Origin: Parcubacteria group bacterium LiPW_30
GTDB lineage: Bacteria > Patescibacteriota > Minisyncoccia > Phycocordibacterales > VMEP01
Assembly: GCA_007375595.1 (NCBI GenBank)
Contig: VMEP01000001.1
Coordinates: 255,883-319,882, forward strand
Length of the DNA stretch: 64,000 nucleotides
Direction of reading: 5' to 3'
The stretch's first letter is position 1; each line of letters opens with the position of its first letter. The position numbers were made by a program, and so were the translations under genes. Of the stretch, positions 15,012 to 49,230 are shown piece after piece. Below the pieces are notes generated by a model, which saw only the letters and a list, made by a program, of their open reading frames with translations, did no database searches and was not told the origin of the DNA.

Positions 15012-15020
15012 CTAAATTTA

Positions 15021-15062
15021 TTTCCTACAATTATAACGCTATAGCGTTATAATTGTAGGAAA
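15021..15062. repeat. Perfect 42-bp palindrome centred on GCTATAGC
   Basis: tttcctacaattataacgc TATA gcgttataattgtaggaaa; no flanking U-tract. Confidence 0.8.
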
Positions 15063-15079
15063 TAAAAAAAACAAAAACA

Positions 15080-15850
15080 ATGGCAACAATACTAACAACT
15101 GAAGAAGAATATGAGATTGTCCGCGAAGGGGGGAAGCGTCTTGGCTTGATACTTCAGGTTTTGGCATCTTCTGCAAAACCAGGTGTTACGACAATGGAAC
15201 TTGACCAAATTGCACACAAATTAATTACCAAAGAAGGTGATAAACCAGCTTTTCTTGGTTATACCCCCGATGGGTCCGATAGACCATACCCAGCGACTCT
15301 CTGTATTTCTGTAAATAGCGAAGTGGTACACGGAATTCCCAAAGATAGAGTTTTAAGAGATGGAGACATTGTTGGTCTTGATTTAGGTCTTTCACACAGA
15401 GGTCTTTATGTTGATAGCGCTATAACGGTTCCAGTTGGAGAGATAGACGATGTTGCAAAAAGACTTATCGAAACCACAAGAGAGGCGCTTTCTCGTGGAA
15501 TGAATGTTGTTAAAGTAGGGGCAAGGATTGGAGATATTGGCGAAGCGATTGAAAGATATGTTAAGACAGAAGGTTTTGCTATCGTTAAAATTTTAGGAGG
15601 GCACGCTCTTGGCGTACACCCACACGAAGAGCCATACATACCAAATTATGGTAAACGCGGCACTGGGCCAATTCTTAAAGAAGGAATGCTTATTGCGCTT
15701 GAACCAATCGTTAATGAAGGATCTCCGAAAGTAACCCTAGATGAAAAAGATGGATATACCTTCCATACAGAAGATGGCAAACGCTCCGCACACTTTGAAC
15801 ATACTCTACTCATAACAAAAGATGGCGCAGAAATAATAACTCTCGTTTAA
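15080..15850 (+). CDS. map: Methionine aminopeptidase type I
   Basis: Pita-bread fold metal ligands (D..D..H..E..E) in conserved context. Confidence 0.9.
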   Translation: MATILTTEEEYEIVREGGKRLGLILQVLASSAKPGVTTMELDQIAHKLITKEGDKPAFLGYTPDGSDRPYPATLCISVNSEVVHGIPKDRVLRDGDIVGLDLGLSHRGLYVDSAITVPVGEIDDVAKRLIETTREALSRGMNVVKVGARIGDIGEAIERYVKTEGFAIVKILGGHALGVHPHEEPYIPNYGKRGTGPILKEGMLIALEPIVNEGSPKVTLDEKDGYTFHTEDGKRSAHFEHTLLITKDGAEIITLV

Positions 15851-15924: not shown

Positions 15925-18675
15925 ATGGTTTTAAACTTTAACGGAGAAAGTCATGAAAAATTTGTAAATCCCGAAGAGGAGATTAATTTTTTGCGTGAAC
16001 GTCTTGCAGAAAAGGAAAAAGAAGCCTCGTTTGGTAAAGAATCGGCGCCAGTTAATCATGAAAAAGAGGTTATTAGGGAATATTCGGAAAAGCCAGCTCG
16101 GGAAATTTTGCATCACGAAAAGGTGCTGGGGGAACAAGAGGTAGAGCGTATCGTTCTTGATTTGAAGCCAGAAGAGCACGATAAACAAATGGAGGAGCTT
16201 CTAGGACTTCTTATTGAAAAAGGTGCTCGTAACACTATTTCAGTTGTGGAGAAGATGGATAATCCCCACATAACTGACGACTTTCACAGAATACTTGTTC
16301 AATATGTTAAAAGCGTAGGAAAAGTTCCAGACTTAGAAAAAGATAAACAAGTTTGGAAGGCGGTACATATGCGTCTTTATGAAATCCTTCTTCCAGAAGG
16401 AGACGCAGAAAAGCAGGCAAAAAGCTTTAAAGAAATTGTTACGATAATGGAACAGTTTTACGCTGGGATGCTTTCTGTTTCCGATGGTCGAGATAATTTT
16501 CCAGGGAAGAATTATTTTACGCTTGAGATAGCTTTGTCTAATCAAAGCAGTGAAATAGTTTTTTACGCTTCTGTTCCTGATGATAAGAGTGGTTTGTTGG
16601 AAAAACAGTTACTCGGTTTATATAAAGACGCTCGAATTAGGGAGGTAAAGGATGATTATAATATTTTTAACGAAAAGGGAGCATCTTTGGGCGCCTACGG
16701 AGCTTTCACAAAAAGTCAGGTCTATCCAATAAAAACATATGCAGATTTTGAACATGATCCACTTCCGGTAATTCTTAACGTTTTTTCTAAACTTAAAAAT
16801 AAAGGAGAGGGGGCGGCAATTCAATTTTCAGTTTCTCCTGTTGGTGATTATTTCTTGAAAAGATACGGAAGAGTGCTTGACGATTTAAAACGAGGAGTGC
16901 CAAAAGATGAAGCAACAAATATTTCGCCAACTGTCGGACAAGAGGTGGGGAGGTTTGCCAAGGAACTCATTATGGGTGTTTCTGTGCCTAAAAAAATTGA
17001 TGGGAAAGAGGTTATTGATGAAGACGCGGTAAAATATGTTTCGGAAAAAATTAGTAGCACTATTGTTAATACAAACATTCGAGTAATTGCTTCCGCAGAG
17101 ACAACCTTGCGCGCTGAAGAAATTTTAGGTGAACTACAATCGGCTTTTAATCAATTCACAGATACTAAAGGAAATGGTGTTGAGTTTAAGTCGTTAAAAC
17201 GCCACGACCTGTTGAAGCTTTTTCAAGAATTTTCTTATAGGCTATTTTCTCAAGATCATTCTTTGCCGCTCAACCTAAAAGAACTTACCACAATGTTCCA
17301 TTTTCCAGAGCAGGTTTCGTCGGCGCCACAACTAAAACAAGCCCGTTCCACGACAGCGCCTGCACCGCTTGATGCTCCAACCTACGGGACACTTCTTGGA
17401 ATAAATAAACACCGTGGAGAAAATAAGGAAATTTTTATTACCGACGAAGATCGAATGCGTCACTTTTATGTTGTCGGACAAACAGGCACTGGTAAGACCG
17501 CAATCATGAAGAACATGATTATTCAGAATATTAAAGCTGGGCACGGGGTGTGCATGATAGACCCACACGGAACCGATATTGAGGATATTTTAGGAAATAT
17601 TCCACCTGAGAGAGAAAAAGACGTTATTTATTTTGACCCAGCTTACACAGAAAGAGTGATGGGTTTGAACATGCTGGAGTATGACCAAACTCGACCAGAG
17701 CGGAAAACTTTCGTGGTTAACGAGTTGATTTCGATTTTTAATAAATTATTTGATATGAAAGTTGCTGGCGGACCAGCATTTGAACAGTACTTCAGAAACT
17801 CTGCTCTTTTGGTTATGGAACACCCAGAATCTGGCAGCACTCTTCTTGAAATTGTGCGTGTTTTGGCTGACAAATCTTTTCGTGACATGAAATTGTCTTA
17901 TTGTAAGAATCCAGTGATTACGCAGTTTTGGCAAAACGCGATTAAGACAAGCGGGGAGCAGTCGCTCGCCAACTTTGTCCCTTATATCTCAAGCAAATTT
18001 GATCCATTTTTATCAAACGATATTATGCGTCCAGTTATTGCTCAAGAAAAATCATCATTTAATTTTAGGCAAATAATGGATGAGAAAAAAATACTCTTGG
18101 TTAATTTGTCTAAAGGGAGGTTGGGAGATTTAAACGCCAATTTAATAGGGCTTATCTTGGTTGGCAAGATTCTTATTGCCGCGCTTTCTCGTGTTGATAT
18201 TGTTGGCGGAAAACCTGCTGATTTTTATTTATACATTGATGAGTTCCAAAATATAACCACTGACTCAATTTCCACAATCCTTTCAGAAGCGCGAAAATAC
18301 AGATTATCTCTAAATGTTGCCCATCAATTTATTAAACAACTTGATGAAAAAACAAAGAACGCTATTTTCGGCAACGTTGGTTCAATGGCGGTGTTTCGTG
18401 TTGGTAGTGAGGATGCAGAATTTTTAGAGAAACAACTTGCGCCAGTTTTTTCTGCAAGAGATATTATGAATTTGGACAATTATAACGCTTACGTGAAAAT
18501 GCTTATGAATGGTCAACCAGCCAGAGCTTTTAACATTGAAACGATTTCGCCAAGGAAGGGGGACGTAAATACCGCTACAAGAATTAAAGAGGCGTCTTAC
18601 CAAAAATACGGAACCCCCCGTGTAGAAATTGAGGAGCATATCGCTCAAAAGTATCGCCAAACAGGAACAGTTTAG
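15925..18675 (+). CDS. Large soluble P-loop ATPase: C-terminal VirD4/TraD/TrwB-like (type IV coupling protein family) domain with an uncharacterised ~480-aa N-terminal region
   Basis: Walker A GQTGTGKT, Walker B LYIDEF, downstream RKYR...NVAHQFIKQL resembling the T4CP R..QS..QL motif; no TM segments. Confidence 0.5.
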   Translation: MVLNFNGESHEKFVNPEEEINFLRERLAEKEKEASFGKESAPVNHEKEVIREYSEKPAREILHHEKVLGEQEVERIVLDLKPEEHDKQMEELLGLLIEKGARNTISVVEKMDNPHITDDFHRILVQYVKSVGKVPDLEKDKQVWKAVHMRLYEILLPEGDAEKQAKSFKEIVTIMEQFYAGMLSVSDGRDNFPGKNYFTLEIALSNQSSEIVFYASVPDDKSGLLEKQLLGLYKDARIREVKDDYNIFNEKGASLGAYGAFTKSQVYPIKTYADFEHDPLPVILNVFSKLKNKGEGAAIQFSVSPVGDYFLKRYGRVLDDLKRGVPKDEATNISPTVGQEVGRFAKELIMGVSVPKKIDGKEVIDEDAVKYVSEKISSTIVNTNIRVIASAETTLRAEEILGELQSAFNQFTDTKGNGVEFKSLKRHDLLKLFQEFSYRLFSQDHSLPLNLKELTTMFHFPEQVSSAPQLKQARSTTAPAPLDAPTYGTLLGINKHRGENKEIFITDEDRMRHFYVVGQTGTGKTAIMKNMIIQNIKAGHGVCMIDPHGTDIEDILGNIPPEREKDVIYFDPAYTERVMGLNMLEYDQTRPERKTFVVNELISIFNKLFDMKVAGGPAFEQYFRNSALLVMEHPESGSTLLEIVRVLADKSFRDMKLSYCKNPVITQFWQNAIKTSGEQSLANFVPYISSKFDPFLSNDIMRPVIAQEKSSFNFRQIMDEKKILLVNLSKGRLGDLNANLIGLILVGKILIAALSRVDIVGGKPADFYLYIDEFQNITTDSISTILSEARKYRLSLNVAHQFIKQLDEKTKNAIFGNVGSMAVFRVGSEDAEFLEKQLAPVFSARDIMNLDNYNAYVKMLMNGQPARAFNIETISPRKGDVNTATRIKEASYQKYGTPRVEIEEHIAQKYRQTGTV

Positions 18676-18779: not shown

Positions 18780-18829
18780 TTCCATACCTCCAATCCATGT
18801 GCTATAGCACATGGATTGGAGGTATGGAA
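18780..18829. repeat. Perfect 50-bp palindrome centred on GCTATAGC
   Basis: ttccatacctccaatccatgt GCTATAGC acatggattggaggtatggaa. Confidence 0.8.
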
Positions 18830-18940
18830 TTGTCTTGAGAATTTTAGGAGGTTGCAGTATGTAGGCGTTCTTTGTTAGGATAAGCCCTACATCACACTAA
18901 AAGGTGATAGGGCTAGACCGGGTGTCCCACGGACGCCATA

Positions 18941-19033
18941 GGGCGAACAGTCTGGGTACAGACTGTTTTAGCCCTAAAACATTATTACCAAAATGTTCGG
19001 GCGAACAAATTTTAAATAAAATTTGTTTTAGCC
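18941..19033 (+). repeat. Two tandem copies of the TTCGGGCGA-hairpin-TTTTAGCC motif
   Basis: gggcgaaCAGTCTGggtaCAGACTGttttagcc then ctaaaa..ttcgggcgaaCAAATTTtaaataAAATTTGttttagcc. Confidence 0.6.
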
Positions 19034-19062: not shown

Positions 19063-19539
19063 ATGGCTCACGAGAAAAAAGAAACTTCGCTTATTATTTT
19101 TAAACCAGATACTCTCCAAAGAGGTTTGCTTGGAGAAATGATTCATCGTTTTGAAAGAAAGGGCTTGAAGATTCGCGGACTCAAAATGATGCAATTAGAA
19201 GATGTGGTTCTTGAAGAGCATTACGCTCATATAAAAGATAAACCATTTTTTGGCGGGATAAAGGAGTATATGAAAGCAACACCAGTCGTTGTTTTTGCGG
19301 TAACAGGAATTAATGCAATCTCGGCAATTCGTACCATTATCGGACCAACAAAAGGACATGAAGCTCCAGCCGGGACAATCCGCGGAGATTTTTCTATGAG
19401 TGGTCAATCAAATATTGTTCATGCGTCAGACTCAAAAGAATCAGCAGAAGCAGAACTAAAGCGTTTCTTTAAAGAAGATGAGTTGTTTGATTATGAACGT
19501 CCTAATTTCCCTTTTATCTACGCAGACGAAGCATTCTAG
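19063..19539 (+). CDS. ndk: Nucleoside diphosphate kinase
   Basis: NDK fold motifs (FKPD..QRGL, active-site His region NIVHASDS). Confidence 0.9.
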   Translation: MAHEKKETSLIIFKPDTLQRGLLGEMIHRFERKGLKIRGLKMMQLEDVVLEEHYAHIKDKPFFGGIKEYMKATPVVVFAVTGINAISAIRTIIGPTKGHEAPAGTIRGDFSMSGQSNIVHASDSKESAEAELKRFFKEDELFDYERPNFPFIYADEAF

Positions 19540-23756: not shown

Positions 23757-24827
23757 TTACTTATCGGCGGGCGTGGTGGCTAGCCTCTTCAGGTTTTGTT
23801 CGGCTTCTTCCGTTTGCCGTTCTGCTTCCCGAATTGCCGCGAGGCGGGCGTATTCAGCCTTCCTTATTTCATACAGCTTAAGGAATTCCGCCGCCTTTGA
23901 GTTTACGAGACAGGCTTCTTCGACGGTAGTCGCTAGGCGAGTTTTACCGACAGGGGATTTGGTTGTGCGGAGTTCTGTTCGCAGAGAGATTTCTTTGAGC
24001 TTTGCCAAACATGGTTCATCAAGCTCTTCGAAACCCCAGAAACTGCTTCGCATACCATAAATATCCCACAGCAGGTCAATCTTGCCGATGGAGGACAGCA
24101 CTTCAAGCATCCAGAGTTTTGCCGAGTTGATGTTTTTGCGCATCTCGGCATTTTGCTTTGCTTTCTCTTCTGGACGGATATGCCACGACTTGATTTCTTC
24201 TCCCTTCCACTTGAAAACAAACGCTGCGAGTCGCAGTAGGAAATTGATGGCCTGTTGTTCGTTGTGGTTGGAGGCCTCTAGTCCAGATAGGTTGCGAACA
24301 GCCCCCCCTTCGACCGCGAAAAAGTTCATGAGGATTGGAAGGATTCGCCCTGAAACAAAGTCAGTGCCCCATGGGTCTCTGCTCCTGTGTTGCACGGAGA
24401 GGGAGTTCTCAATCTCGACCTTGAAGAAGTTCTGGGCGAGTACGTCAAACGCTTTGCGTGCCAACTTCTGGCGAAACCATGCTGGGTTTCCTGGTTGGCG
24501 ATTTCCGTACCTGTCGTAGCCGATGACATATCCTTTGCCTTCATCTGACTCAAGATGCCACTGGGAATAACCACGTTCCCAACCATCAGCAATGGCGAAG
24601 TAGGTTTCCAGGCGATCAGCATGGTCGTACTCTTGTTCGCCATGACTGAAACGCTCAAACCCCACATTGAAACCCTCGTGGAGCAGTCCGGCCAGCTGGT
24701 GCGTGGTGGTGGACTCTTGCCAGCAGGTTCGCCACTCGTTCCAATTACGGGGCGGGCGAATTTCGCGCACCATGAGGGGGTGTGGTAGAGCACTTACGGC
24801 ACTTACGAGATCTTCAATTTGCGACAT
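23757..24827 (-). CDS. Hypothetical 357-aa protein, GC-rich (~52%), coiled-coil C-terminus
   Basis: Start moved to internal Met (MSQIEDL) because the longer ORF overlaps tRNA-Ala; RBS AGAGAGG upstream. Confidence 0.5.
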   Translation of the reverse strand: MSQIEDLVSAVSALPHPLMVREIRPPRNWNEWRTCWQESTTTHQLAGLLHEGFNVGFERFSHGEQEYDHADRLETYFAIADGWERGYSQWHLESDEGKGYVIGYDRYGNRQPGNPAWFRQKLARKAFDVLAQNFFKVEIENSLSVQHRSRDPWGTDFVSGRILPILMNFFAVEGGAVRNLSGLEASNHNEQQAINFLLRLAAFVFKWKGEEIKSWHIRPEEKAKQNAEMRKNINSAKLWMLEVLSSIGKIDLLWDIYGMRSSFWGFEELDEPCLAKLKEISLRTELRTTKSPVGKTRLATTVEEACLVNSKAAEFLKLYEIRKAEYARLAAIREAERQTEEAEQNLKRLATTPADK

Positions 24828-24929
24828 TTTGTTGCCTCTCTTTCTTTCTTGGGTTATGCCCCGTACTGTGACGGGACGAGGTACTGCTATGCCAAATATA
24901 CCTCGGGGCTTGATTAAGTCAAACTGTTG

Positions 24930-25005
24930 TGGTGGACCATACCGGATTCGAACCGGTCGCCTCATCCATGCCATGGATGCGCTCTACCAAATGAGCTAAT
25001 GGCCC
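24930..25005 (-). tRNA. tRNA-Ala (anticodon GGC), CCA encoded
   Basis: Cloverleaf folded by hand: acceptor GGGCCAT/ATGGTCC, D-arm GCTC..GAGC, anticodon loop ATGGCAT, T-loop TTCGAAT. Confidence 0.8.
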
Positions 25006-25064
25006 CTAAAATATTTTACAGAAAAATATTCGGGCGACCATTTTCTTTAGAAAATGGTTTAGCC
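25006..25064 (+). promoter_or_regulatory. CTAAAA-hairpin-TTCGGGCGA-hairpin-TTTTAGCC motif, antisense orientation abutting the tRNA-Ala 5' end
   Basis: Read on minus strand the motif ends TTTTAG immediately before mature tRNA G1. Confidence 0.5.
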
Positions 25065-25097
25065 TTTAAATTTTGAAACACTATACCAAAACAAACA

Positions 25098-25135
25098 AAA
25101 ACAGCCCGACGAAAGTCGGGGCTGTTTTTGTTTCT
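25098..25135. terminator. Bidirectional terminator
   Basis: aaaaacagccccgactttcgtcgggctgtttttgtttg-type hairpin flanked by A-run and T-run. Confidence 0.6.
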
Positions 25136-25145
25136 ATTAATTAAA

Positions 25146-25305
25146 ACTATTTCTTTGAAGGAAGGATTTTGTACATTCCAGTTCCACACACTGTACATGT
25201 ACCTTTTGCTGCAGGGCGTCCAGGCTTTATTTCAGTCTGCTGAACATCCTTCATCTCACGCTTTTCCTTACACTTCACACAATACCCAATTATTTTTTCA
25301 TCCAT
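25146..25305 (-). pseudogene. Small double-CxxC zinc-ribbon protein gene (52 aa expected) disrupted by a single extra G (frameshift)
   Basis: Minus-strand translation MDEKIIGYCVKCKEKA* then +1 frame ...REMKDVQQTEIKPGRPAAKGTCTVCGTGMYKILPSKK*; intact reading is restored by deleting one g in aaggaaaagGcgtgag. Confidence 0.35.
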
Positions 25306-25451
25306 AGTTATATAGTCTAGCCTATTTTAGGGTAAATACACAAGGAGGAAGGGGAATATACCCGTTTGACCTTTCTGTGATTATCATGTAGTAGTTAGTG
25401 TTAGTAATTGTTGAATTTTCAATCAACGGGATAGAAAAGGAAAAAACGATC

Positions 25452-26861
25452 ATGCACATTTCAACTCGCGGTTTGGCTCCGGCGGTTAATTTTGCCTACA
25501 CGGTGCTCAAGGGAATTGCGCCAGATGGTGGTTTATACGTTCCGGAGAAGATTTTCCAGTTTGCCGAAGATGACATTCGTCGGCTTGCTGGACTTTCCTA
25601 TACGGAGGTTGCCAAAATTGTCATGGATCGGTTTGCTCCGGACATGGACAAAGTCGCGCTTCACGGCGCGATAGACAAGGCTTATACCCCCGACGTTTTT
25701 GCAAACGTTACCGAAAAGGATGACAATCCCATCGACATCGTCCCTGTGCGCCATCTTGGTCAAGATTTGTATCTTGCTCGGCTGAGCAATGGGCCAACTC
25801 TCGCATTCAAGGATTTGGCGTTGCAGTTGCTTGGCCACCTCTTCGAAATCGTTCTCGACGGGAAACCACTCAACGTGCTTGGGGCGACGTCGGGCGACAC
25901 GGGGTCGGCGGCTATTCATGCCATGCTCGGAAGAAAGGATATACGCGTTTTCATGCTCTCTCCGCATGGCAGGATGAGTCAATTTCAATCGGCTCAGATT
26001 TTGGGCGTCAATGACCCGATGATTCACAACATTTCGGTCAACGGTTCGTTCGACGATTGCCAAGACGTGGTGAAGGCGGTTAGCGGGGACGCTAGCTTCA
26101 GGGAGGAGTACAACATCGGCGCCGTAAACTCAATCAATTGGGCAAGGGTTGCCGCGCAGGTGGTCTACTACTTCTTTGTTTGCTCCCGCATCCGTGGTCG
26201 TGATGGTGGCCAAATTGACGTCGCCGTCCCGACAGGGAATTACGGCAACATCTATGCGGCCTGGGTTGCGAAAATGATGGGGTTGCCGATTCGTCGGCTG
26301 ATTCTCGCAACCAACGAAAACGATGTTCTGCATGAGTTTTTCACAACGGGCATTTACAGGCCCAGACTGAAGACCATCGAAACGTCGAGTCCGTCGATGG
26401 ACATCACCAAGGCGTCGAATTTCGAGCGTTACGTTTTTGACGTTTTTGGCGGCAACTCAACCAAGGTTGCAAGGCTGTGGGCGGCACTCGACAAGACGGG
26501 GCAGTTTGATTTGTCGCACAGGATGGCGAAGATTCGCGAGACAGGTATTACTTCCTGCGCAGTTCAGCAGGAACAAGTCGCCGAGACCATCAACTACGCC
26601 TTCGTGAAGTACGGCATCGTCATCGACCCCCACACGGCGGTAGCAATGCACTCGGCAATTAATACGCAGCAGTCCGGCGTGCCGATGGTCGTGATGGAGA
26701 CAGCTCAGCCCTGCAAGTTTGACCTTGCTATAAAGCAGGCGCTTGGTTTCACTGTATCGCCTCCTTCGAGCATGAAGGACCTTATGTCCACAAAGCAGTT
26801 CTTTACGCAGATGGATCCAAACGTCGAAGCGACCAAGGAATTCATTCGCGCGCGGGCATGA
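25452..26861 (+). CDS. thrC: Threonine synthase
   Basis: PLP-enzyme motifs GPTLAFKD and ATSGDTGSAA; GC ~55-60%, well above background. Confidence 0.85.
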   Translation: MHISTRGLAPAVNFAYTVLKGIAPDGGLYVPEKIFQFAEDDIRRLAGLSYTEVAKIVMDRFAPDMDKVALHGAIDKAYTPDVFANVTEKDDNPIDIVPVRHLGQDLYLARLSNGPTLAFKDLALQLLGHLFEIVLDGKPLNVLGATSGDTGSAAIHAMLGRKDIRVFMLSPHGRMSQFQSAQILGVNDPMIHNISVNGSFDDCQDVVKAVSGDASFREEYNIGAVNSINWARVAAQVVYYFFVCSRIRGRDGGQIDVAVPTGNYGNIYAAWVAKMMGLPIRRLILATNENDVLHEFFTTGIYRPRLKTIETSSPSMDITKASNFERYVFDVFGGNSTKVARLWAALDKTGQFDLSHRMAKIRETGITSCAVQQEQVAETINYAFVKYGIVIDPHTAVAMHSAINTQQSGVPMVVMETAQPCKFDLAIKQALGFTVSPPSSMKDLMSTKQFFTQMDPNVEATKEFIRARA

Positions 26862-26883
26862 GCGAATTCATTTTCGCTTTTCA

Positions 26884-26985
26884 AAACCTAGTCTTCGGGC
26901 TAGGTTTTTTGTTTGGTGAGGCGTTGATTTCATAACTAAAATTTTTGAATTAATAAAACCCGCCGGAGCGGGTTTTTTGTGACTT
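26884..26985. terminator. Two successive intrinsic terminator hairpins
   Basis: aaaacctagtcttcgggctaggttttttg and aaaacccgccggagcgggttttttg. Confidence 0.65.
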
Positions 26986-26989
26986 CTTT

Positions 26990-27493
26990 TTACCATGGCG
27001 TTTTATTTCCAGGATATTCTGCGATTGCAAACTCGAGGCCATCTATCCCGTAATCAGCGAGACGGACACACCCACCCATGAAGCAAAACTGCTTGGCTTG
27101 GAGAATGTCGAGAGCCACGGTTGTTTCCATGCCCTGGAAAAGATTCCAGAGGTAGTGGGATTTCACCCTTTCGTCCACAACAGGTTCACCTCGTCGCTGG
27201 ATGTTTACAAGCCAGAAGATAGTGAAGACGGTCGGGGCGAGGAGGTCGCTCTTGTACTTCTTGTAGAGGCGGTATTCGGTACGGTTTGCGACGATACCGG
27301 CCAGAAGATACTTGATTACGGCAAGGAGCGGGTTCCGGTGATGTTTCTCAAGGTTACCCCGTACTTGTTTCTTCTGAATTGATTCGAAGAGCTTGATGAA
27401 CGGCCTTAGTGGGCGAAATCGCGCAATCTTGATGGCGTACTGCCCAATCAAAATTACACAGCGGGTAGAACCACACGCGAAATCAAGGTACAT
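26990..27493 (-). CDS. Hypothetical 167-aa protein, possibly small kinase-like fold
   Basis: AIKIAR (beta-3 Lys-like) and VRLADYG (DFG-like) motifs; GC-rich; weak inference. Confidence 0.3.
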   Translation of the reverse strand: MYLDFACGSTRCVILIGQYAIKIARFRPLRPFIKLFESIQKKQVRGNLEKHHRNPLLAVIKYLLAGIVANRTEYRLYKKYKSDLLAPTVFTIFWLVNIQRRGEPVVDERVKSHYLWNLFQGMETTVALDILQAKQFCFMGGCVRLADYGIDGLEFAIAEYPGNKTPW

Positions 27494-27621
27494 GATGCCT
27501 CCCGTTCCTGTTGGTTGAAGAGACTACCTATGTTTACTCGCTACACTTCATCATCTTTGGGGCTGGAAGTCAAGGATAAAAAACAAACCCATGGAAACCT
27601 GTGCTTGTGTTTTTGTGGGGT

Positions 27622-27683
27622 GGCTAAAACATCTCTACAAAAGAGATGTTCGCCCGAATATTTTGTAATTGCAAAATATTTTA
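27622..27683 (-). promoter_or_regulatory. Fifth copy of the TTCGGGCGA hairpin motif, sense orientation ahead of gene 27705
   Basis: ggctaaaaCATCTCTacaaaAGAGATGttcgcccgaa tattttgtaattgcaaaatat tttag | gagggg. Confidence 0.5.
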
Positions 27684-27704
27684 GGAGGGGTAGGATTGGG
27701 GGAC

Positions 27705-28049
27705 ATGGAGAAGGTAATACTAAGTGTGTTTGTTGGGGTACTTTTGGTTCCACAAATTGCTTTTGCTCACCCTGGTAGGACAGACTCTTCTGGTTGTCAC
27801 ACGTGTAAAACAAATTGTTCCAATTGGGGTCTTTCGTATGGAGAATATCATTGTCATAATTCAAAAGGAGTTTCTCAGCCAAAGGAACCAATAAAAAGTA
27901 CGTATGGTGAAAATGGAACAGGTTACGTTTCTAAAGCTCCTGAATATAAGACACAGAAAGTTAATACGGTGAAAAGTGTAAATACACAACAAAACAAAAA
28001 AGTAGAAGAAAAAGGAAATTGGTTTAGTAGATTATTAGGGTGGAGGTAA
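27705..28049 (+). CDS. Secreted small protein with His/Cys metal-binding-like motif (HPGRTDSSGCH...GEYHCH) and C-terminal WFSRLLGW tail
   Basis: Signal peptide MEKVILSVFVGVLLVPQIAFA; RBS AGGAGGGG; start set at ATG (track ORF begins at an upstream TTG). Confidence 0.5.
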   Translation: MEKVILSVFVGVLLVPQIAFAHPGRTDSSGCHTCKTNCSNWGLSYGEYHCHNSKGVSQPKEPIKSTYGENGTGYVSKAPEYKTQKVNTVKSVNTQQNKKVEEKGNWFSRLLGWR

Positions 28050-28058
28050 TAAAAGGAG

Positions 28059-29042
28059 ATGAAGAAAATATTTATTGCATCATTATTAATATTTACACCA
28101 GTTCTGTTTTTAAGTGCAAGCTCTATTAAGGGTGTTTCGCTTGGTGAGTTTGCCAGCTGTAGTTATTATTTAATAGAGGACAGTTCTGGGGACTATACAC
28201 TCGCAGAGTGGTACGGTGGTATTACTCCATACGAAGGAGATGTTTTATATGGGGAGTTACATTCCTATGGATTTAAGGATTTGTACAATATTACAAGGGA
28301 TAATTCTACTCGTGTGTGGATTGATGACTACTTATTGTCCGAGGACAGGGCAACGGAAAAGCTAATAGATGAATGTGGTTGGGACAGGGAAATTTTTAAT
28401 TATTTTGGTAACACGTCCTATTACCCTTCCTCTTATACACAACCACCGCGCGTATCACCGCCTACAATTTCTTGTCCTGTTAATTCAACTTTAAATTCTT
28501 CTGATTCAAAATGTTATTGTAACTCTGGGTATTCTATAAATTCAAATGGAAATGCTTGTGTAGTAAATATGCCCACTTGTACAGCCAATTCGTCTAGGAG
28601 GGCAGATAATCAATGTTATTGTGACACAAGTTTTACGCGTGTTGGAGATAGGTGTATTAGTTACACAGAAAAGTGTCAATTGACTTATGGGTCAAATTCT
28701 TATGGAACTGAAACAAATTGTTATTGTTCAAACGGTTATATTTTTAATAGTGCTGGCAATTACTGTGTTCCTAAGCCCGTAACAGTTACTACTAATCCGG
28801 TACCTAATAACGTAAGTGCTAATAAATTAACCACAGACTTAACAGAACCTGCTGTATCAAAAAAAGAAATAAAAACAATCACAACAAAAACAAATATTCT
28901 TAAAACAAAAACGATAAAGTCACAATTATCTAGTACAACTATTTCTGCGAAAGCGTCGACAACTATTGAAACACCTAATTCTAAAACAAAAATAGATCCA
29001 AAAATATCATGGTTCAATAGATTGTTTGGTTGGTTTAAATAG
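28059..29042 (+). CDS. Secreted Cys-repeat protein (three C-x-C-x2-GY-x3-N/S-x-G-N-x-C-V repeats, Thr/Lys-rich linker, C-terminal SWFNRLFGWFK)
   Basis: Signal peptide; repeats CYCNSGYSINSNGNACV / CYCDTSFTRVGDRCI / CYCSNGYIFNSAGNYCV. Confidence 0.6.
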   Translation: MKKIFIASLLIFTPVLFLSASSIKGVSLGEFASCSYYLIEDSSGDYTLAEWYGGITPYEGDVLYGELHSYGFKDLYNITRDNSTRVWIDDYLLSEDRATEKLIDECGWDREIFNYFGNTSYYPSSYTQPPRVSPPTISCPVNSTLNSSDSKCYCNSGYSINSNGNACVVNMPTCTANSSRRADNQCYCDTSFTRVGDRCISYTEKCQLTYGSNSYGTETNCYCSNGYIFNSAGNYCVPKPVTVTTNPVPNNVSANKLTTDLTEPAVSKKEIKTITTKTNILKTKTIKSQLSSTTISAKASTTIETPNSKTKIDPKISWFNRLFGWFK

Positions 29043-29087
29043 TTTATGTGATTGTGTTTTATCGTAAGAATGGAGTCAAAATAAAAA

Positions 29088-29696
29088 ATGACAAGTGATT
29101 TAAATACCATTGTGGGACTTTACAGGGAAAAAGTTTTTCAAATTTTAAAAGTGTCATTTATCCTAGAGTACTTAGAGGAATATAATTATGAATTTTCTGT
29201 AAAATACAGAGAACAGAATGCATCATTAATAACAGTGATTGAATCTATTGATTTTTGTCACACGATGCTTTTATCACGTATTTTTGACGAGGATAACAAA
29301 TCTTTCTCAGTTAAAAATATACTTAAAAAACTAAATAAGAATTATAACAATGGTGTAATTTCTGAGATTACGGAGTTAGAGCTTAAGGGGACTTTAAAAA
29401 ATCTTAGTATGTGGAGGGGAAATGTTTTTGCTCATGATAATTTTAATGTTTCAATGTCTTCAGAGCATTACGATATGTACCCTTCTCATACGATAGATTT
29501 TGAAACATTACATCAATATCTTATCGATACTCTTATAACATACGAATTTGATTTGATTAATAATGATAAATCAGTTGAATATTTAACTAATGTTTTTAAT
29601 GAGGAGTTAGAAGCTAAGAAAAAACAATGGGAAGGTGATATTAATTTAGTATTAAAGTTTATTGGTAATTATAGAGTTCAAAATCTATTAAAGTAA
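29088..29696 (+). CDS. Hypothetical protein in AT-rich island; possible HEPN-like Rx5H motif (WRGNVFAHD)
   Basis: ~28% GC; motif-level inference only. Confidence 0.35.
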   Translation: MTSDLNTIVGLYREKVFQILKVSFILEYLEEYNYEFSVKYREQNASLITVIESIDFCHTMLLSRIFDEDNKSFSVKNILKKLNKNYNNGVISEITELELKGTLKNLSMWRGNVFAHDNFNVSMSSEHYDMYPSHTIDFETLHQYLIDTLITYEFDLINNDKSVEYLTNVFNEELEAKKKQWEGDINLVLKFIGNYRVQNLLK

Positions 29697-29830
29697 TTTA
29701 TTGCTCGCTAAATTTTGTGTTGTTTGAACGTAAGGGTTTTCATCAGTTTAGTTAAATTATGGGTTTCGGTTGCATAAACACTCTAGAACTGTAAGTATTA
29801 ACGTGTTAGGATATTTGTGATTTTATAACC

Positions 29831-30241
29831 ATGTCAAAGCATAAAGGAATATGGGAGTATGTAAAAATTAGTTCTTCGGAATACTACTATTCTGAAATAC
29901 AACCAGAAGGAATAAATTATTTTCTTCGAGCTGCAACAGCAAAAATTCTATGGGTGACTTTTTGTTACATACTGGTTTTAAAGATGATCCCGCTAACTAA
30001 CTTTATCCTTTTGAACGCCTCGGTTCTTCTTGCGGGAAGCGCGTTTATTTTCTTTTGGGAACAGGTTGTAAAAGATCATGCTCCAAAATGGTGTGACGAT
30101 TTTGTAACTGGAAAGATATTTTTTGAAGTTGACATATCTTCATTAAACAAGTATATTTTCTACCTCTTTATAGCAAACCTACTTATGTTCCTTTTCCCTG
30201 GAACTAAATTAGGATTAACAACATCTTATGACAAAAAATAG
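29831..30241 (+). CDS. Hypothetical membrane protein
   Basis: Three predicted TM segments; AT-rich. Confidence 0.4.
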   Translation: MSKHKGIWEYVKISSSEYYYSEIQPEGINYFLRAATAKILWVTFCYILVLKMIPLTNFILLNASVLLAGSAFIFFWEQVVKDHAPKWCDDFVTGKIFFEVDISSLNKYIFYLFIANLLMFLFPGTKLGLTTSYDKK

Positions 30242-35671: not shown

Positions 35672-35744
35672 TTCGTATGGTATTTTGAGCCGTCAGTATA
35701 ACATTTTGTCTTAATCTTAGTTTTCCTGTTTTTATTAGAAACCA

Positions 35745-35786
35745 TCCCCCGACTATAATTACGCTATAGCGTAATTATAGTCGGGG
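35745..35786. repeat. Perfect 42-bp palindrome centred on GCTATAGC
   Basis: cccccgactataattacgc TATA gcgtaattatagtcggggg. Confidence 0.8.
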
Positions 35787-35882
35787 GGGGTTATTTAAAA
35801 CTTGTGCAGTTTCTCTTGAAAATGTAAACTTCGATTTACGTTCTATTTATTTATGTAGCCAAGAACTTGATTGAAAATATGC

Positions 35883-35960
35883 GTCCGCCCTTAGCTCAGT
35901 TGGTTAGAGCACAGAGCTTATACCTCTGCGGTCCCTGGTTCGAATCCAGGAGGGCGGACA
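35883..35960 (+). tRNA. tRNA with anticodon TAT (UAU; reads AUA, Ile); acceptor helix can extend to 9 bp
   Basis: Cloverleaf folded by hand: D-arm TAGCTCAGTTGGTTAGAGC, anticodon stem CAGAG/CTCTG, loop CTTATAC, T-loop TTCGAAT, acceptor CCGCCCT/AGGGCGG. Confidence 0.6.
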
Positions 35961-40340: not shown

Positions 40341-41030
40341 TTATTTTGCCACAGTGATTTTTAAAAAATTCCTTGCTCCAGATTTTTTAAGAGCTTTTTC
40401 TGCTTCATGGAGGGTTGCGCCAGTAGTTGAAACATCGTCTATTAAAATTATATTTTTTCCGCGCACTAATTCTTTGTTTTTAACAGCAAAACAACCGCGA
40501 ACATTATTTTTTCTTTCTCCTTTATTTTTTATTTCCGCTTGTGGGGGTGTGTCAATCGCACGGAGAAGAATATCTTTTTTAAGTGTGAAGTTTTCTCCCG
40601 CATCTTTTTCAATTAAAGCTTCCGCCAAAAGTTCCGCCTGGTTATATCCTCGTTTTTTAAAACGTTTTGTAGAAAGTGGAACGGGAATCAGAACGGCATC
40701 GCTCCAGTTTTTTAGTAATTTTAGGTCGGCAAGTTCTGGAAGTAGTCTTTCATAAAGAGCTTCCGCTAAAATTGGAGCTAAGTATCTTCCATTTCTGTAC
40801 TTTAGTTTCCAGATAGCTCTTTTAACTATTTTGTTCTGGTAAGAAAACACAGCAACAACCTCTTCTTCTTGTTTAAAATCTGGTGGCGGTAAAACGACGA
40901 GGCATTTTGCGCATAAACCAACCTCTTTTTCCCCACAACCAACACAAGAAATAGGGTAGAGGGTATTTGATAGCAAAAAAGAAAGGGGCTGTAATAAATC
41001 GGTTAGTTTTTTTAAATCAACACTAAACAT
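40341..41030 (-). CDS. comFC: Competence protein ComFC (double zinc ribbon plus phosphoribosyltransferase domain)
   Basis: CxxC..CxxC N-terminus and PRTase motif IILIDDVSTTGAT. Confidence 0.8.
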   Translation of the reverse strand: MFSVDLKKLTDLLQPLSFLLSNTLYPISCVGCGEKEVGLCAKCLVVLPPPDFKQEEEVVAVFSYQNKIVKRAIWKLKYRNGRYLAPILAEALYERLLPELADLKLLKNWSDAVLIPVPLSTKRFKKRGYNQAELLAEALIEKDAGENFTLKKDILLRAIDTPPQAEIKNKGERKNNVRGCFAVKNKELVRGKNIILIDDVSTTGATLHEAEKALKKSGARNFLKITVAK

Positions 41031-41115: not shown

Positions 41116-42267
41116 ATGGATAATCCCTTCAACAAAATTCTTGGGTCACTTAAATCGGGCTTCGCCAAAAGAAGCCAGAGTGTTGTTGGTATCGATATTG
41201 GTTCTTCTTTCGTTAAAGTTGTGCAACTTAAAAAGAAAGGTGGACGCGCCGTGCTTGAAACATATGGCGAGCTTGCTTTGGGCCCAATCGCTGGGCTTGA
41301 AGTTGGAAGAATGACCAACCTTTCTGCGGAGAAAGTTGCCCAAGCGGTAGCAGATATTTTTCGTGAGGCCAACGTGACAACAAAAGAGAGCGCAATCGCA
41401 ATTCCGCTTTCTGGTAGCCTTATCTCTTTTGTGGAGATTCCGTATCTTGTAGAAAAACAACTTCAAGAAATTATTCCGATTGAAGCGAGAAAGTATATTC
41501 CTGTGCCAATCTCCGAAGTCACTCTTGATTGGTGGATTATTCCAAAATTTGATAGCGCAACAACCGAAGTTAGCGAATCGGAAAAATCGAGTATTACTGC
41601 CGGAGCAAGAGTTCAGAAGGCCGATGTGTTGATTGCTGCAATTCACAATGAGGTGCTTATGAAGCTAAAAAGCGTAGCAACTTTAAATAGTTTAAATGCT
41701 GGGTTTTTTGAAATAGAGGTTTTCAGTACAGTTCGTTCTACTTTTGGACACGACTTGGTACCAACAATGCTTTTTGATATGGGTGCCGGAATGACCAAGC
41801 TTTCTATTGTGGAAAGAGGAATCATGCAAAGCTCGCACATAATAAATAGAGGATCACAAGACATCACGATGAACATTTCAAACTCTCTCGGGGTCTCGTC
41901 TTCGCGCGCGGAAGAGCTGAAGCGTTTATACGGATTATCTCAAACAGAGACCGAAGAAGGAAAAGTTGTCGCCGAAATCTCATCCACAGTTCTTGAGTAT
42001 GTATTTTCCGAAGCGAATAGGATATTATTAAACTACGAAAGGAAATATAATAAAACTGTCTCAAAGGTTATCCTTATCGGTGGCGGCGTTCTTTTAAAAG
42101 GGTTTAAAGAAGCAGCAGAAAAAAATCTAGAAGCCGAAGTTCTTTACGGAGATCCATTTGCAAAAGTCGAAGCCCCTGCGTTTTTAACAGATGTATTAAA
42201 AGAGGCTGGACCAGAGTTTGCTGTGGCAATAGGATTGGCTCTAAGAAGACTACAAGAACTTGATTAA
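41116..42267 (+). CDS. pilM: Type IV pilus assembly protein PilM (actin-like ATPase fold)
   Basis: VVGIDIGSSFVKVV and later conserved blocks. Confidence 0.85.
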   Translation: MDNPFNKILGSLKSGFAKRSQSVVGIDIGSSFVKVVQLKKKGGRAVLETYGELALGPIAGLEVGRMTNLSAEKVAQAVADIFREANVTTKESAIAIPLSGSLISFVEIPYLVEKQLQEIIPIEARKYIPVPISEVTLDWWIIPKFDSATTEVSESEKSSITAGARVQKADVLIAAIHNEVLMKLKSVATLNSLNAGFFEIEVFSTVRSTFGHDLVPTMLFDMGAGMTKLSIVERGIMQSSHIINRGSQDITMNISNSLGVSSSRAEELKRLYGLSQTETEEGKVVAEISSTVLEYVFSEANRILLNYERKYNKTVSKVILIGGGVLLKGFKEAAEKNLEAEVLYGDPFAKVEAPAFLTDVLKEAGPEFAVAIGLALRRLQELD

Positions 42268-42298
42268 AAAATTTTTATATTAGGCACTTCGTAATTTA

Positions 42299-42919
42299 AT
42301 GGATTACCCATCACAAAATCAAACATCATTTATTCCAAGAAAGTCCTTGGTTAAAGAAGGAAACGGGGGTGAAAAACCTGTTGGGGTCTTTCTTATTATT
42401 TCTGTTTTTATTTTTCTAGTTGCCGTTCTTGGTGGTGTTGGCGTCTTTCTTTACGAGAAAAAATTATCTAACGATATACAAAGTGCTAGCGATAGTTTAA
42501 AAAGGGCACAAGGGGCTTTTGAAATTCCAACGATAGAGAATTTGAAATTATTAGGAAGAAGAATTGAAATGTCTAAAAACTTAGTTCAAAGACACACCGT
42601 AGTGTCGCCGGTTTTTGAATTACTACAAAACGAAACTTTGAAAAGTGTGCGATTTAATAAATTTGAATACTCTAATGACCTTAAAGGTGTTGTGAAGGTG
42701 GATTTGGACGGAGAAGCAAAAAGCTATGAAACTCTTGCTTTGCAGTCATCTGAGTTTGCCAAAAATAAGAACATTAAAGGTAATGTCTTTTCAAATATCA
42801 ATTTGGATGAAAAAGGCAATGTTGTTTTTAAAGTAGAACTCACTCTTGACCCAACTGTTATTTCTTACCGCGACCAATTATTACGATTAAGTGGTGGTAG
42901 TGAAGATTTCCAATTTTAA
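42299..42919 (+). CDS. PilN-like bitopic membrane protein
   Basis: Single TM after short N-terminus; follows pilM. Confidence 0.5.
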   Translation: MDYPSQNQTSFIPRKSLVKEGNGGEKPVGVFLIISVFIFLVAVLGGVGVFLYEKKLSNDIQSASDSLKRAQGAFEIPTIENLKLLGRRIEMSKNLVQRHTVVSPVFELLQNETLKSVRFNKFEYSNDLKGVVKVDLDGEAKSYETLALQSSEFAKNKNIKGNVFSNINLDEKGNVVFKVELTLDPTVISYRDQLLRLSGGSEDFQF

Positions 42920-42922
42920 AAT

Positions 42923-43516
42923 ATGCTTAAAGTAATTTTTCCAATTTTATTGCTCTCCACGTCAGTCTTGATGTTTTTCACTTTTATTAATCCGCATTAT
43001 CAGAAAATAAAAACAGAACAGGTTGAACTTGCGGATTATAATGAGGCACTCGATAATTCGAAGATTATTTTAGGTCAAAAAAACGATCTTCTGGCTACCG
43101 TTAATGAAATTCCACAAGAACAAAAAGATAAATTAGAAAAATTACTTCCAAGTAATATTGATAATATCCGTCTTATAATCGAAATTAATAATATCGCCAA
43201 AAGATACGGAATAGTGCTTCGGGCAATTGAATTTGGTAGCACCCCTGGTAGTGGAGACAAGAAGACTGACAGCTCTCAGGCGGGACAAAAGGGCGCTGCA
43301 CCAAGCACTACTGGCGGAAATAATGAATACGGGACGGTCACTCTTGGTTTTACCACAGTCGCATCGTACAAGACATGCGTTTCTTTCTTAAAAGAAATAG
43401 AAACGAGTTTACGTTTGGTCGAAATAAAATCTGTCTTGTTTGATGCTCCAGCTTCTTCACAAGATAAAGATTTGTACACCTTTAGAATTGAGCTTAGTAC
43501 CTTTTGGTTAAAATAA
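42923..43516 (+). CDS. PilO-like bitopic membrane protein
   Basis: Single N-terminal TM; operon position. Confidence 0.45.
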   Translation: MLKVIFPILLLSTSVLMFFTFINPHYQKIKTEQVELADYNEALDNSKIILGQKNDLLATVNEIPQEQKDKLEKLLPSNIDNIRLIIEINNIAKRYGIVLRAIEFGSTPGSGDKKTDSSQAGQKGAAPSTTGGNNEYGTVTLGFTTVASYKTCVSFLKEIETSLRLVEIKSVLFDAPASSQDKDLYTFRIELSTFWLK

Positions 43517-43525
43517 AAAAGATAT

Positions 43526-43882
43526 ATGATTTCTAAAAATATAAAGAATATAGTAATAGCCGGGGTGATAATAGGCGCAAGTTTTCTTGTTTATTCTTTT
43601 TTTATAAAATCTAGTGATTCAAACGAATCTATTTCTTCAACCCCGTCTGCTGTTGAAATGAATCAGACTGATAACACCACAGGAAATCAAATCTTAAAAA
43701 TATTAAGTAATTTAAAAACTATCAGAATAGATAAAAACTTCTTTTCTGAACCAGCCTTCATTGAGTTACAAGATTATAGTGTTAATTTGACCGAGGAACA
43801 GGTTGGTAGACAGAATCCATTTATTTCCGTAGGAGCTGAGCCGGTACAGGCACCACAGGCTACCCCTAAGGTAACACAGTAA
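43526..43882 (+). CDS. Hypothetical bitopic protein in pilus operon
   Basis: N-terminal TM; position before pilB. Confidence 0.35.
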   Translation: MISKNIKNIVIAGVIIGASFLVYSFFIKSSDSNESISSTPSAVEMNQTDNTTGNQILKILSNLKTIRIDKNFFSEPAFIELQDYSVNLTEEQVGRQNPFISVGAEPVQAPQATPKVTQ

Positions 43883-43930
43883 GTTGTGGTTTTGTGATAG
43901 TTAACAGTTAAAAATTATTTTTGAAAAACT

Positions 43931-45637: not shown

Positions 45638-45730
45638 TGAGGTGGATAACACGTTTTGTAGTATGATATATAATATTCAGTGGATTAAGAAGTATAAAAT
45701 ATTTCTTAAAAATCTGAATAGATACATATT

Positions 45731-46123
45731 ATGGAGAAAATGAATAAAAAAATACTTATTGTTGATGACGATAATTTTTTGCTTGATATGTACAGTTTAA
45801 AATTCACCGAACGTGGTTTTAGCGTGGACTCATCTTTGGGGAGCGTTGACCTAATTCAGAAGCTACGCGGTGGAGCGACCCCAGACATTTTGTTATTAGA
45901 CATTGTTATGCCGACAATGGATGGTTTTGAAGTTTTGGAGGCAATAAAAAAAGAAAATTTAGCAAAAGGTGCTATTAAAATAATACTTTCAAACCGCGGA
46001 CAGAAGGAGGATATAGACCGCGGGATAAGTTTAGGGGCAAAGGGATATATTGTAAAAGCAACAGCTACACCAACGGAAGTGGTTGATAAGGTGATAGAAA
46101 TAATTGGATCTTCTCAGAAATAA
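45731..46123 (+). CDS. Single-domain response regulator (CheY-like receiver) inside the pilus operon
   Basis: ILIVDDD...LLLDIVMPTMDG...K receiver signature. Confidence 0.75.
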   Translation: MEKMNKKILIVDDDNFLLDMYSLKFTERGFSVDSSLGSVDLIQKLRGGATPDILLLDIVMPTMDGFEVLEAIKKENLAKGAIKIILSNRGQKEDIDRGISLGAKGYIVKATATPTEVVDKVIEIIGSSQK

Positions 46124-46143
46124 TAAAATATTAATTATTTAAA

Positions 46144-47208: not shown

Positions 47209-47228
47209 GATAATTAAATTTTACTCAG

Positions 47229-48446: not shown

Positions 48447-48675
48447 TGGCAGAAAGATAGCTTTTAGCTTCACCAGCTTCTTTAGGGGATAGGGGGCAGG
48501 TTGTATAGTTAAAAGCTCTCTCCTATCGGTCTAACAAGCTAATGAAGCTATGTTAGCTAACACCTGCTTAAAGTTGTCCACATAATCCTTCCCACAATAA
48601 AGATTGGCTGGTATAATAAGACAATCTTAAAAATTGAGGCTTTTTAATGGGTCAAATTATAATTTAAATTAAAAT

Positions 48676-49155
48676 ATGAATAGAAATAATAAAGGTTTTA
48701 CGCTTATCGAACTCTTGGTTGTTATCGCAATCATCGGTATTTTGTCGTCTATCGTTCTTGCTTCCCTAAACACAGCTCGTGGTAAGGGTGCAGACGCAGC
48801 TATTAAGGGGAACCTTGAAGGTATCCGTGTTCAAGCAGAAATGCTCTACGACACTAATGGTGGTTATGGTGTTGATGCTACACCTACAGCATTTACTGCC
48901 GCTGCTTGTGCAGCAACAGCAGATACTCTCTTTGCTGACACTGTAATCAAAGGTCAAATCACCTCTGCTGGTACTGCCGTGGACAGTGATGGTATGGCTA
49001 ATGGTAGTTGTGTAAGCACCGCTTCAGAATGGGCAGTATCAATGCCACTAAAGACAGCTCCCTCAACATCTTGGTGTGTTGATAGTACAGGAGCATCAAG
49101 GGTCGTTAGTCCAGCTGGTACAGATAAAGGATTTAGTGGTAATGCTTGTAAATAG
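48676..49155 (+). CDS. Type IV major pilin
   Basis: Class III signal KGFTLIELLVVIAIIGIL; C-terminal Cys pair. Confidence 0.8.
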   Translation: MNRNNKGFTLIELLVVIAIIGILSSIVLASLNTARGKGADAAIKGNLEGIRVQAEMLYDTNGGYGVDATPTAFTAAACAATADTLFADTVIKGQITSAGTAVDSDGMANGSCVSTASEWAVSMPLKTAPSTSWCVDSTGASRVVSPAGTDKGFSGNACK

Positions 49156-49171
49156 TCTTAATTTTCTATCA

Positions 49172-49205: not shown

Positions 49206-49230
49206 TTGTTGCATGATATAATTTAAGTAT

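Follow-up and report, generated by a model that had tools for sequence, protein, structure and literature searches.

The system for type IV secretion (T4SS) of the patescibacterium Southlakia epibionticum is essential but "lacks a recognizable coupling protein" (PMC10633639). The Patescibacteria, also called the Candidate Phyla Radiation (CPR), possess a separate canonical VirB4, and 5,713 homologs of the type IV coupling protein (T4CP) have been counted in 2,918 of 3,035 of their genomes, only 148 of them near virB4 (PMC12102498). In the same study the t4cp gene of S. epibionticum was called dispensable and possibly exapted, the authors noting that exaptation "cannot be ruled out" (PMC12102498). 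Here we analyze a gene for an ATPase of 916 amino acids (aa) in a stretch of 64,000 nucleotides from Parcubacteria group bacterium LiPW_30 (positions 255,883 to 319,882 of the 680-kb contig VMEP01000001.1, forward strand; hereafter the window). We consider it about an even chance (probability roughly 0.5) that this ATPase serves as a second, coupling-type motor of a Patescibacteria T4SS that would be encoded elsewhere in the genome.

The product of the gene is an exact match to GenBank entry TSC54817.1, "hypothetical protein LiPW30_283." It can be divided into three parts, the boundaries of which are given below together with the motifs of the motor domain; structure models were computed with AlphaFold2 (AF2), and the full-length model has a predicted local distance difference test (pLDDT) score of 82.

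15925..18675, plus strand: complete open reading frame (ORF) of 916 aa with ATG start, a single uninterrupted frame
15925..16335, plus strand: acidic helical N-terminal module, residues 1-137, AF2 helices with pLDDT of about 80-90
16336..17364, plus strand: DUF8128 (PF26449), residues 138-480, predicted alpha/beta fold like the VirB4 N-terminal domain
17365..18672, plus strand: P-loop motor of the VirB4/VirD4 (FtsK-HerA) clade, residues 481-916
17476..17499, plus strand: Walker A, GQTGTGKT, residues 518-525, with G518, T520, G521, G523 and K524 invariant
17701..18039, plus strand: entirely helical insertion separating Walker A from Walker B, residues 593-705, AF2 helices
18226..18246, plus strand: Walker B, LYIDEFQ, residues 768-774, with D772, E773, Q775 and N776 invariant

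A preliminary description of this DNA, based on its letters alone, had taken the first 480 residues for a single novel domain, but they resolve into the small module of residues 1-137, to which we return below, and DUF8128, which is predicted to have the fold of the N-terminal domain of VirB4. The assignment to PF26449 is indirect, in that it comes from precomputed annotation on the best 120 of more than 2,000 homologs, all 120 of which carry this family; one of them, P0001 (97% identity), represents the 90% cluster to which the window protein itself belongs. A search of the PDB sequences with the N-terminal domain gave no match, and only the comparison of folds was informative. With the DUF8128 region modeled alone (pLDDT 87.6, predicted template modeling score 0.87), Foldseek returned 14 significant matches with E values from 3e-7 to 3e-4 and a probability of 1.00, all of which were TrwK chains of T4SS structures from plasmid R388. 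Because neither P-loop nor Hcp1 structures were present in the other list of fold comparisons for this region, the match is probably to the N-terminal domain of TrwK, and neither to its motor nor to the fused Hcp1 tag. In the R388 structures, it is through its N-terminal domain that VirB4 is attached to VirB3 and VirB8, at the bottom of the inner-membrane complex. At the level of the fold, the window protein has the arrangement of VirB4, with a VirB4-type domain at the N-terminus and a P-loop domain at the C-terminus; the reference structures for VirB4 were TrwK of R388 (PDB 7o42 and 8rtd) and the VirB4 C-terminal domain (CTD) of Thermoanaerobacter pseudethanolicus (PDB 4ag5).

Within the FtsK-HerA superfamily, the motor domain belongs with VirB4 and VirD4, being T4CP-like in sequence and slightly VirB4-like in fold, and it has the features of that superfamily, namely Walker A and Walker B motifs, conserved polar and arginine residues downstream of these and a RecA-like core. 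This placement follows from weak matches to the T4CP, HerA and FtsK models in Pfam and NCBIfam, and from a search of the PDB sequences with a profile of the family, in which TrwB (E 3e-8) and DotL (E 1e-5) were the top matches. In Pfam, the matches to TraG-D_C (27.8 bits, cut-off 22) and TrwB_AAD_bind (25.1 bits, cut-off 20.5) cover short stretches only. The NCBIfam matches, which include SXT_TraD and a CD1115 VirD4-like model, were far below the cut-offs of the T4CP models (scores of 49.9, 43.8 and 34.3 against cut-offs of 366, 250 and 648). Among the VirB4 models, TIGR00929 scored 10 bits (E 0.15), where the cut-off is 643, and CagE_TrbE_VirB, AAA_10 and P-loop_TraG gave no match. Aligned by fold, the motor covers 359 of the 420 residues of TrwB and 332 of the 374 residues of the VirB4-CTD. 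The insertion at residues 593-705 appears in the model to stand at the position of the all-alpha domain of the T4CPs and of the helical bundle of the VirB4-CTD, and may correspond to the former.

The protein combines features like those of both T4SS ATPases. Its motor has its best sequence-profile matches among the T4CPs (TrwB, TraD, VirD4, DotL/IcmO and Cag-beta), carries a helical insertion, and is encoded apart from virB4, as are many t4cp genes. It differs from the T4CPs in that it has a predicted VirB4-type N-terminal domain, which they lack, in that it has no transmembrane (TM) anchor, its relatives having one helix and the T4CPs usually two, and in that it falls below every NCBIfam T4CP cut-off and has no relaxase associated with it. 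From VirB4 it differs in lying outside the VirB4 sequence profiles, whereas gp155 of phage G, a genuine VirB4, does match P-loop_TraG and AAA_10, and in that its gene is not part of a T4SS cluster.

In an alignment of 64 homologs of the ATPase, with identities down to 35%, the Walker motifs are not degenerate, as the preliminary description had allowed they might be, but invariant at the positions listed above. R790 and K791 as well as Q801 and Q805, which belong to the third of the coupling-protein motifs that had been quoted, ARKYRLSLNVAHQFIKQL (residues 789-806), are likewise invariant, as are E176, E201, Y245, P268, K375, F408, R439, E453, H459 and P461 in DUF8128. Because catalytic and N-domain positions are invariant in all 64 homologs, the ATPase is, judging from its sequence, a working enzyme under purifying selection. 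All three of the quoted motifs (GQTGTGKT, IDEF and RKYR...AHQFIKQL) were found in the motor, and the earlier view of the C-terminal half as VirD4/TraD-like agrees with the profile comparisons in Pfam, NCBIfam and the PDB. The claim that the protein is soluble also held, since a 19-residue hydropathy scan of the 916 residues revealed no membrane anchor, the sole hydrophobic stretch (residues 736-760, approximately) being a buried helix within the ATPase core just ahead of Walker B.

This solubility is, however, a derived feature of a subclade and not a property of the family as a whole. The homologs fall into two classes, one of approximately 915 aa to which the window protein belongs and another of approximately 800 aa. 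An N-terminal hydrophobic or TM segment was identified in none of 137 homologs of the long class; it is present, as a single helix, in 120 of 125 relatives of the short class. The N-terminal module of the long class has a conserved motif (...KG..N...VV..M.NPHI.DDFH), and a profile of the first 140 residues, searched against 4,951 ORFs, matched small ORFs located directly upstream of the short-class genes at the loci L080 (E 4e-17), L084 (2e-7), L081 (1e-6), L074 (2e-3) and L004 (6e-3). Since the module is recovered as a separate gene in front of TM-anchored relatives, the window protein represents a fusion of a two-gene module, accompanied by the loss of the TM helix. The closest representative of the unfused state is at L080 (9998-12773), where the partner ORF (121 aa) runs 8 nt into the start of the gene for a TM-anchored ATPase of 805 aa; this ATPase and the window protein are 53% identical. 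The profile missed the small upstream ORFs at the loci of the Saccharibacteria, the Falkowbacteria and L003 (E 0.06-0.2 in a test with four sequences), for which the equivalence is positional only. A rough neighbor-joining tree groups the fused class into one clade, which is nested among the TM-anchored forms; this tree and the pairwise scores describe a continuum rather than two clean groups of paralogs, and orthology is thus tentative. Together, the fused and the unfused forms serve as a "Rosetta stone" that names the partner protein of the ATPase.

Published genetics of S. epibionticum may bear on this two-gene module. In a transposon sequencing (Tn-seq) screen of strain ML1, the ATPase gene SEML1_0142 was scored as essential, and SEML1_0141, a gene of 420 bp directly upstream of it, was scored GD/ES/ES, whereas a second T4CP-like gene, SEML1_0293, was non-essential (PMC10633639, Table S1). 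The statement that the t4cp homolog is not essential (PMC12102498) therefore fits SEML1_0293 only, and the main text of the Tn-seq paper names neither SEML1_0141 nor SEML1_0142 (PMC10633639). Like the unfused relatives of the window gene, the pair consists of a small upstream gene and an ATPase gene, here for a "TraM recognition domain" protein of roughly 1,000 aa with a P-loop domain from about residue 380. We used as a proxy a homolog from the Saccharibacteria, P0448, whose alignment with the window protein spans 733 aa at 36% identity (433 bits) and which is encoded at a locus with the order and similar sizes of the genes SEML1_0138-0145, namely YifB, a small gene, the ATPase, two genes on the reverse strand and gyrB. 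Because of this synteny, and since SEML1_0141 and SEML1_0142 were scored as essential, the pair of a small gene and a DUF8128 ATPase seems essential in this species, the only patescibacterium open to genetics. The S. epibionticum form is unfused and TM-anchored (the TM segment of the proxy P0448 is at residue 4), unlike the window protein, and homology between a small partner of the SEML1_0141 type, from the proxy locus, and the N-terminal module of the window protein was not detectable.

Further links to type IV secretion come from three distant relatives whose genes are located near those for VirB4 proteins. On a 1-Mb Patescibacteria contig (L090), a DUF8128 ATPase of 728 aa divergently adjoins PrgI, small genes, VirB4 and an M23 peptidase, beside dnaN and dnaA, which is where the T4SS has been described to lie (PMC12102498). 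On a megaplasmid of Pontibacillus, a DUF8128 ATPase is encoded about 8-12 kb from a cluster for a pilin-like protein, VirB4 (CD1110) and a peptidoglycan hydrolase. In the jumbo Bacillus phage G (L085, 4243-8385), the DUF8128 ATPase gp156 directly follows the VirB4-type gp155, and no further recognizable T4SS genes are annotated near this pair. The VirB4 proteins of L090, Pontibacillus and phage G are 31-40% identical to each other. The Pontibacillus homolog (Pontibacillus sp. ALD_SL1 plasmid NZ_CP062975.1, about 341-345 kb; L086, 7878-11870), which is composed of the TM helix, DUF8128 and the motor, is split into three ORFs. The first break falls directly after the Walker A lysine, and the gaps measure about 250 nt and 1.5 kb; the gene could be a pseudogene or contain intervening elements. 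The same plasmid also bears a full flagellar regulon beside the T4SS-like cluster.

The preliminary description had called the ATPase an orphan, but it belongs to a large uncharacterized family that is found in almost all CPR bacteria. A search of 5.8 billion proteins yielded more than 2,000 significant homologs of the full-length type, essentially all of them from the Patescibacteria, and the best 120 of these are all full length, with identities of 57-97%, from metagenome-assembled genomes of the Paceibacteria, Nomurabacteria, Wolfebacteria and similar lineages; across the Paceibacteria lineages, identity is 57-60%. The N-terminal region alone, searched with HMMER against 1.8 billion representatives, matched 1,142 clusters, and the full-length matches always continue into the ATPase. 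With gp156 of phage G as the query, the family extends to the Berkelbacteria, Falkowbacteria, Gottesmanbacteria and Saccharibacteria. Outside the Patescibacteria, it was found only in Bacillus phages and on the one Pontibacillus megaplasmid. The phage relatives belong to PHROG 5156 (E 3e-78, residues 183-909) and include gp156 of phage G and, from SPO1-like phages, gp91 of CP-51 and proteins of JL and Shanette; they share DUF8128 and the motor with the window protein (tblastn, residues 175-901), at about 22% identity, and gp156 bears PF26449. Unlike the window protein they are without the N-terminal module, and in phage G the gene follows that of a VirB4-type ATPase. A tblastn search with the N-terminal domain alone gave no match among phages and one record, that of Pontibacillus, among plasmids.

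In the window, the gene is located between map and ndk, as the preliminary description had placed it, and downstream of the S5-L15-secY-adk genes:

15080..15850, plus strand: map, methionine aminopeptidase (Peptidase_M24), at the end of the S5-L15-secY-adk-map operon; conserved upstream neighbor
18780..18829, no strand assigned: perfect palindrome of 25+25 nt, 105 nt past the stop codon of the ATPase gene; possible transcript-end hairpin, no clean T-run
19063..19539, plus strand: ndk, conserved downstream neighbor

Downstream of ndk are genes for a beta-CASP ribonuclease (RNase) and a SLOG protein, followed by L20, L35 and IF3 on the opposite strand, and the G+C content of the gene (0.38-0.40) is the same as that of the flanking DNA. 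A comparison of neighborhoods across the CPR, which had been proposed as a check, revealed that about half of the loci of the fused type retain the order map-X-ndk, where X is the ATPase gene. Among loci with enough flanking sequence, map is at most 6 kb upstream in 25 of 46 and ndk at most 4 kb downstream in 28 of 54, and the wider order S5-L15-secY-adk-(pyrH)-map-X-ndk-RNase-SLOG-L20/IF3 is also conserved. Elsewhere the ATPase gene is again placed among core genes, as in L27-X-dnaX in the Falkowbacteria and IF3/L35/L20...X...gyrBA in the Saccharibacteria.

Three long intergenic palindromes in the window, at 15017-15066 (in the gap between adk and map), 18780-18829 and 35735-35798, have a common center, GCTATAGC, and different arms. 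The first two are perfect palindromes of 25+25 nt and the third is 86% complementary; they may represent a family of hairpin elements or transcript-end structures. The G+C-rich part of the 388-nt spacer before ndk (18850-18985) is predicted to fold into three or four hairpins (-55.8 kcal/mol, z = -5.3 relative to shuffled sequences). No real Rfam family was identified in this spacer, the only matches being below-threshold, miRNA-like and to the palindrome.

Several other features of the window are of interest in their own right. A type IV pilus or competence-pilus cluster at 41116-52413 encodes PilM, three ORFs without a Pfam match, PilB, a response-regulator receiver, PilT, PilC, a pilin, a prepilin peptidase and three N-methyl pseudopilins, one of which is ComGE-like, and an ORF for a ComFC-like phosphoribosyltransferase is found at 40341-41030 on the strand opposite to the pilus cluster. 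At 24000-30000 there is a sharp shift in composition, with a G+C content of 0.48 at 24-28 kb, which contains threonine synthase and a 405-aa ORF without a Pfam match, and of 0.32 at 28-30 kb, which contains a 327-aa ORF without a match and a weakly HEPN_AbiU2-like ORF (29088-29696); this stretch may be acquired or defense-related DNA. A tRNA-Ile with the anticodon UAU, an unusual means of decoding AUA, was identified with ARAGORN at 35885-35959.

We hypothesize that the ATPase assembles as a ring NTPase and that it would use its VirB4-like domain for docking, along with the fused partner module, in place of a membrane helix of its own. The target of the docking would be the chromosomal T4SS that most Patescibacteria genomes carry elsewhere, a system derived from the monoderm MPF-FATA type. 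At this T4SS the ATPase could act as a second, coupling-type motor and feed a substrate, either protein or nucleic acid, to the channel, and its placement in a housekeeping operon would provide for constitutive expression. A broader version of this hypothesis, which we offer tentatively and hold to be doubtful, is that the DUF8128 ATPases are the overlooked and essential "missing coupling protein" of the Patescibacteria T4SS. They would then constitute a third lineage beside VirB4 and VirD4, with a docking domain of the VirB4 type and a motor of the VirD4 type, and would be obligately paired with a small helical protein. In the Paceibacteria subclade, this pair would have been fused and moved off the membrane, such that the motor would be recruited from the cytoplasm, perhaps already loaded with substrate.

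Several observations weigh against a role of the ATPase at the T4SS. As the preliminary description had stated, no T4SS or relaxase gene was found among the Pfam-scanned ORFs of the window, several of which have no match and some smaller ones of which were left unscanned. VirB4 was located within 10 kb in none of 84 loci of the Paceibacteria type, no T4SS cluster with genes of the VirB3, VirB6 or VirB8 type adjoins the ATPase gene in the window or at these 84 loci, and the co-encoding with a T4SS or relaxase that is used to recognize T4CPs was likewise not found among the scanned ORFs of the window, the adjacency to VirB4 being confined to distant relatives. In 39 loci without map and ndk, an all-against-all clustering of the neighbors identified none that recurs in more than six loci, and all of the recurring ones (FKBP, tgt, UvrB, a histidine kinase, GtrA-like proteins and PMT_2 glycosyltransferases) are housekeeping genes. 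Furthermore, the T4SS-adjacent relative P0483 is more distant from the window protein (30% identity, 306 bits) than P0448, and may be a paralog with a different job. The apparent orthology of SEML1_0142 to the window ATPase is itself derived from the synteny of the proxy locus of P0448 and is tentative.

As the main alternative, we considered a housekeeping translocase independent of the T4SS. The gene would then descend from an ancestral secretion ATPase that was exapted for pumping DNA, RNA or protein in some core process of the cell, for instance segregation, repair or envelope biogenesis. The co-directional location in housekeeping operons (map-X-ndk, L27-X-dnaX and IF3/L35/L20...X...gyrBA), the high sequence conservation and the lack of any T4SS gene within 10 kb in the 84 loci are all in line with such a role, and exaptation was kept possible by the authors of the survey of T4CP homologs (PMC12102498). 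We nevertheless find it rather unlikely, in that a VirB4-type N-terminal domain is, by the established structures, otherwise known only as a docking module of the T4SS, and three independent relatives adjoin VirB4 genes. The higher prevalence of T4CP homologs (96% of genomes) than of VirB4 (80%) might be taken to indicate independence from the T4SS, but it shows no such thing, because two copies with a recovery of about 80% per gene predict 96%. A substitute for FtsK was set aside, since S. epibionticum keeps an essential canonical FtsK (PMC10633639, Table S1), which makes the replacement of FtsK unlikely in that species. The preliminary description had instead raised a link to DNA uptake through the type IV pilus, ComEC and ComFC machinery, and indeed the pilus cluster and the ComFC-like ORF are found 22-35 kb downstream in the window, and the relative at L004 is followed by a PilM_2 gene. 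Adjacency to pilus genes was, however, observed in only 1 of about 90 loci, and we found no similarity in fold or sequence to ComFA or PilB/PilT. Deletion of comEC in S. epibionticum ends competence while viability is kept (PMC12857230), whereas SEML1_0142 is essential; since comEC is dispensable, competence alone cannot be the essential role if the orthology holds, and we regard a motor for DNA uptake as improbable.

A function in defense had also been suggested, and the motor domain does match the mad8 model of PADLOC (E 3e-15) as well as HerA models, as expected for an ATPase of the HerA, DptH or MADS mad8 type. The similarity to these proteins is restricted to the generic motor domain, while the N-terminal domains differ. 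That of HerA is a HAS barrel. No nuclease, methylase, Sir2 or Dnd partner adjoins the gene in any locus, its neighbors in the window being map, ndk, the RNase and the SLOG protein, and a core gene in a fixed housekeeping position, with an ordinary G+C content and an essential apparent ortholog in SEML1_0142, makes a poor candidate for a defense gene; we consider this function very improbable. The presence of the family in Bacillus phages and on a megaplasmid of the Bacillales could finally indicate that the gene is a remnant of an integrated conjugative element or a prophage. Yet the phage homologs are distant (about 22% identity, as noted above), no integrase, relaxase or repeats flank the gene, its composition equals that of the surroundings, its synteny is kept across many species and its catalytic residues are invariant, and such an origin seems scarcely credible to us.

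The family as such is not new to the databases, being labeled DUF8128 in Pfam and "TraM recognition domain-containing" or "T4SS DNA-binding domain-containing" at NCBI, and a 2025 survey counted it among the T4CP homologs. A literature search for PF26449 and DUF8128 found no paper. In the literature searched we also did not find the predicted VirB4-type fold of DUF8128, the relation between the split and the fused forms with the small partner and the associated disappearance of the anchor, the conserved position that closes a ribosomal-protein operon, or that the essential one of the two T4CP-like genes of S. epibionticum appears to be of the DUF8128 ATPase type.

Our findings bear on the divergence of the two T4SS ATPases, in that features like those of VirB4 and of VirD4 are mixed in a single protein. 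They also single out SEML1_0142, together with SEML1_0141, as a concrete candidate for the missing motor of the T4SS, carrying a docking domain that is predicted to be of the VirB4 type. A large part of the diversity of bacteria is accounted for by the Patescibacteria, whose cells are attached to those of a host, and their T4SS is essential in the one tractable species. If the broader hypothesis of a missing coupling protein is true, the DUF8128 ATPase would power the exchange, of whatever kind, between these epibionts and their hosts.

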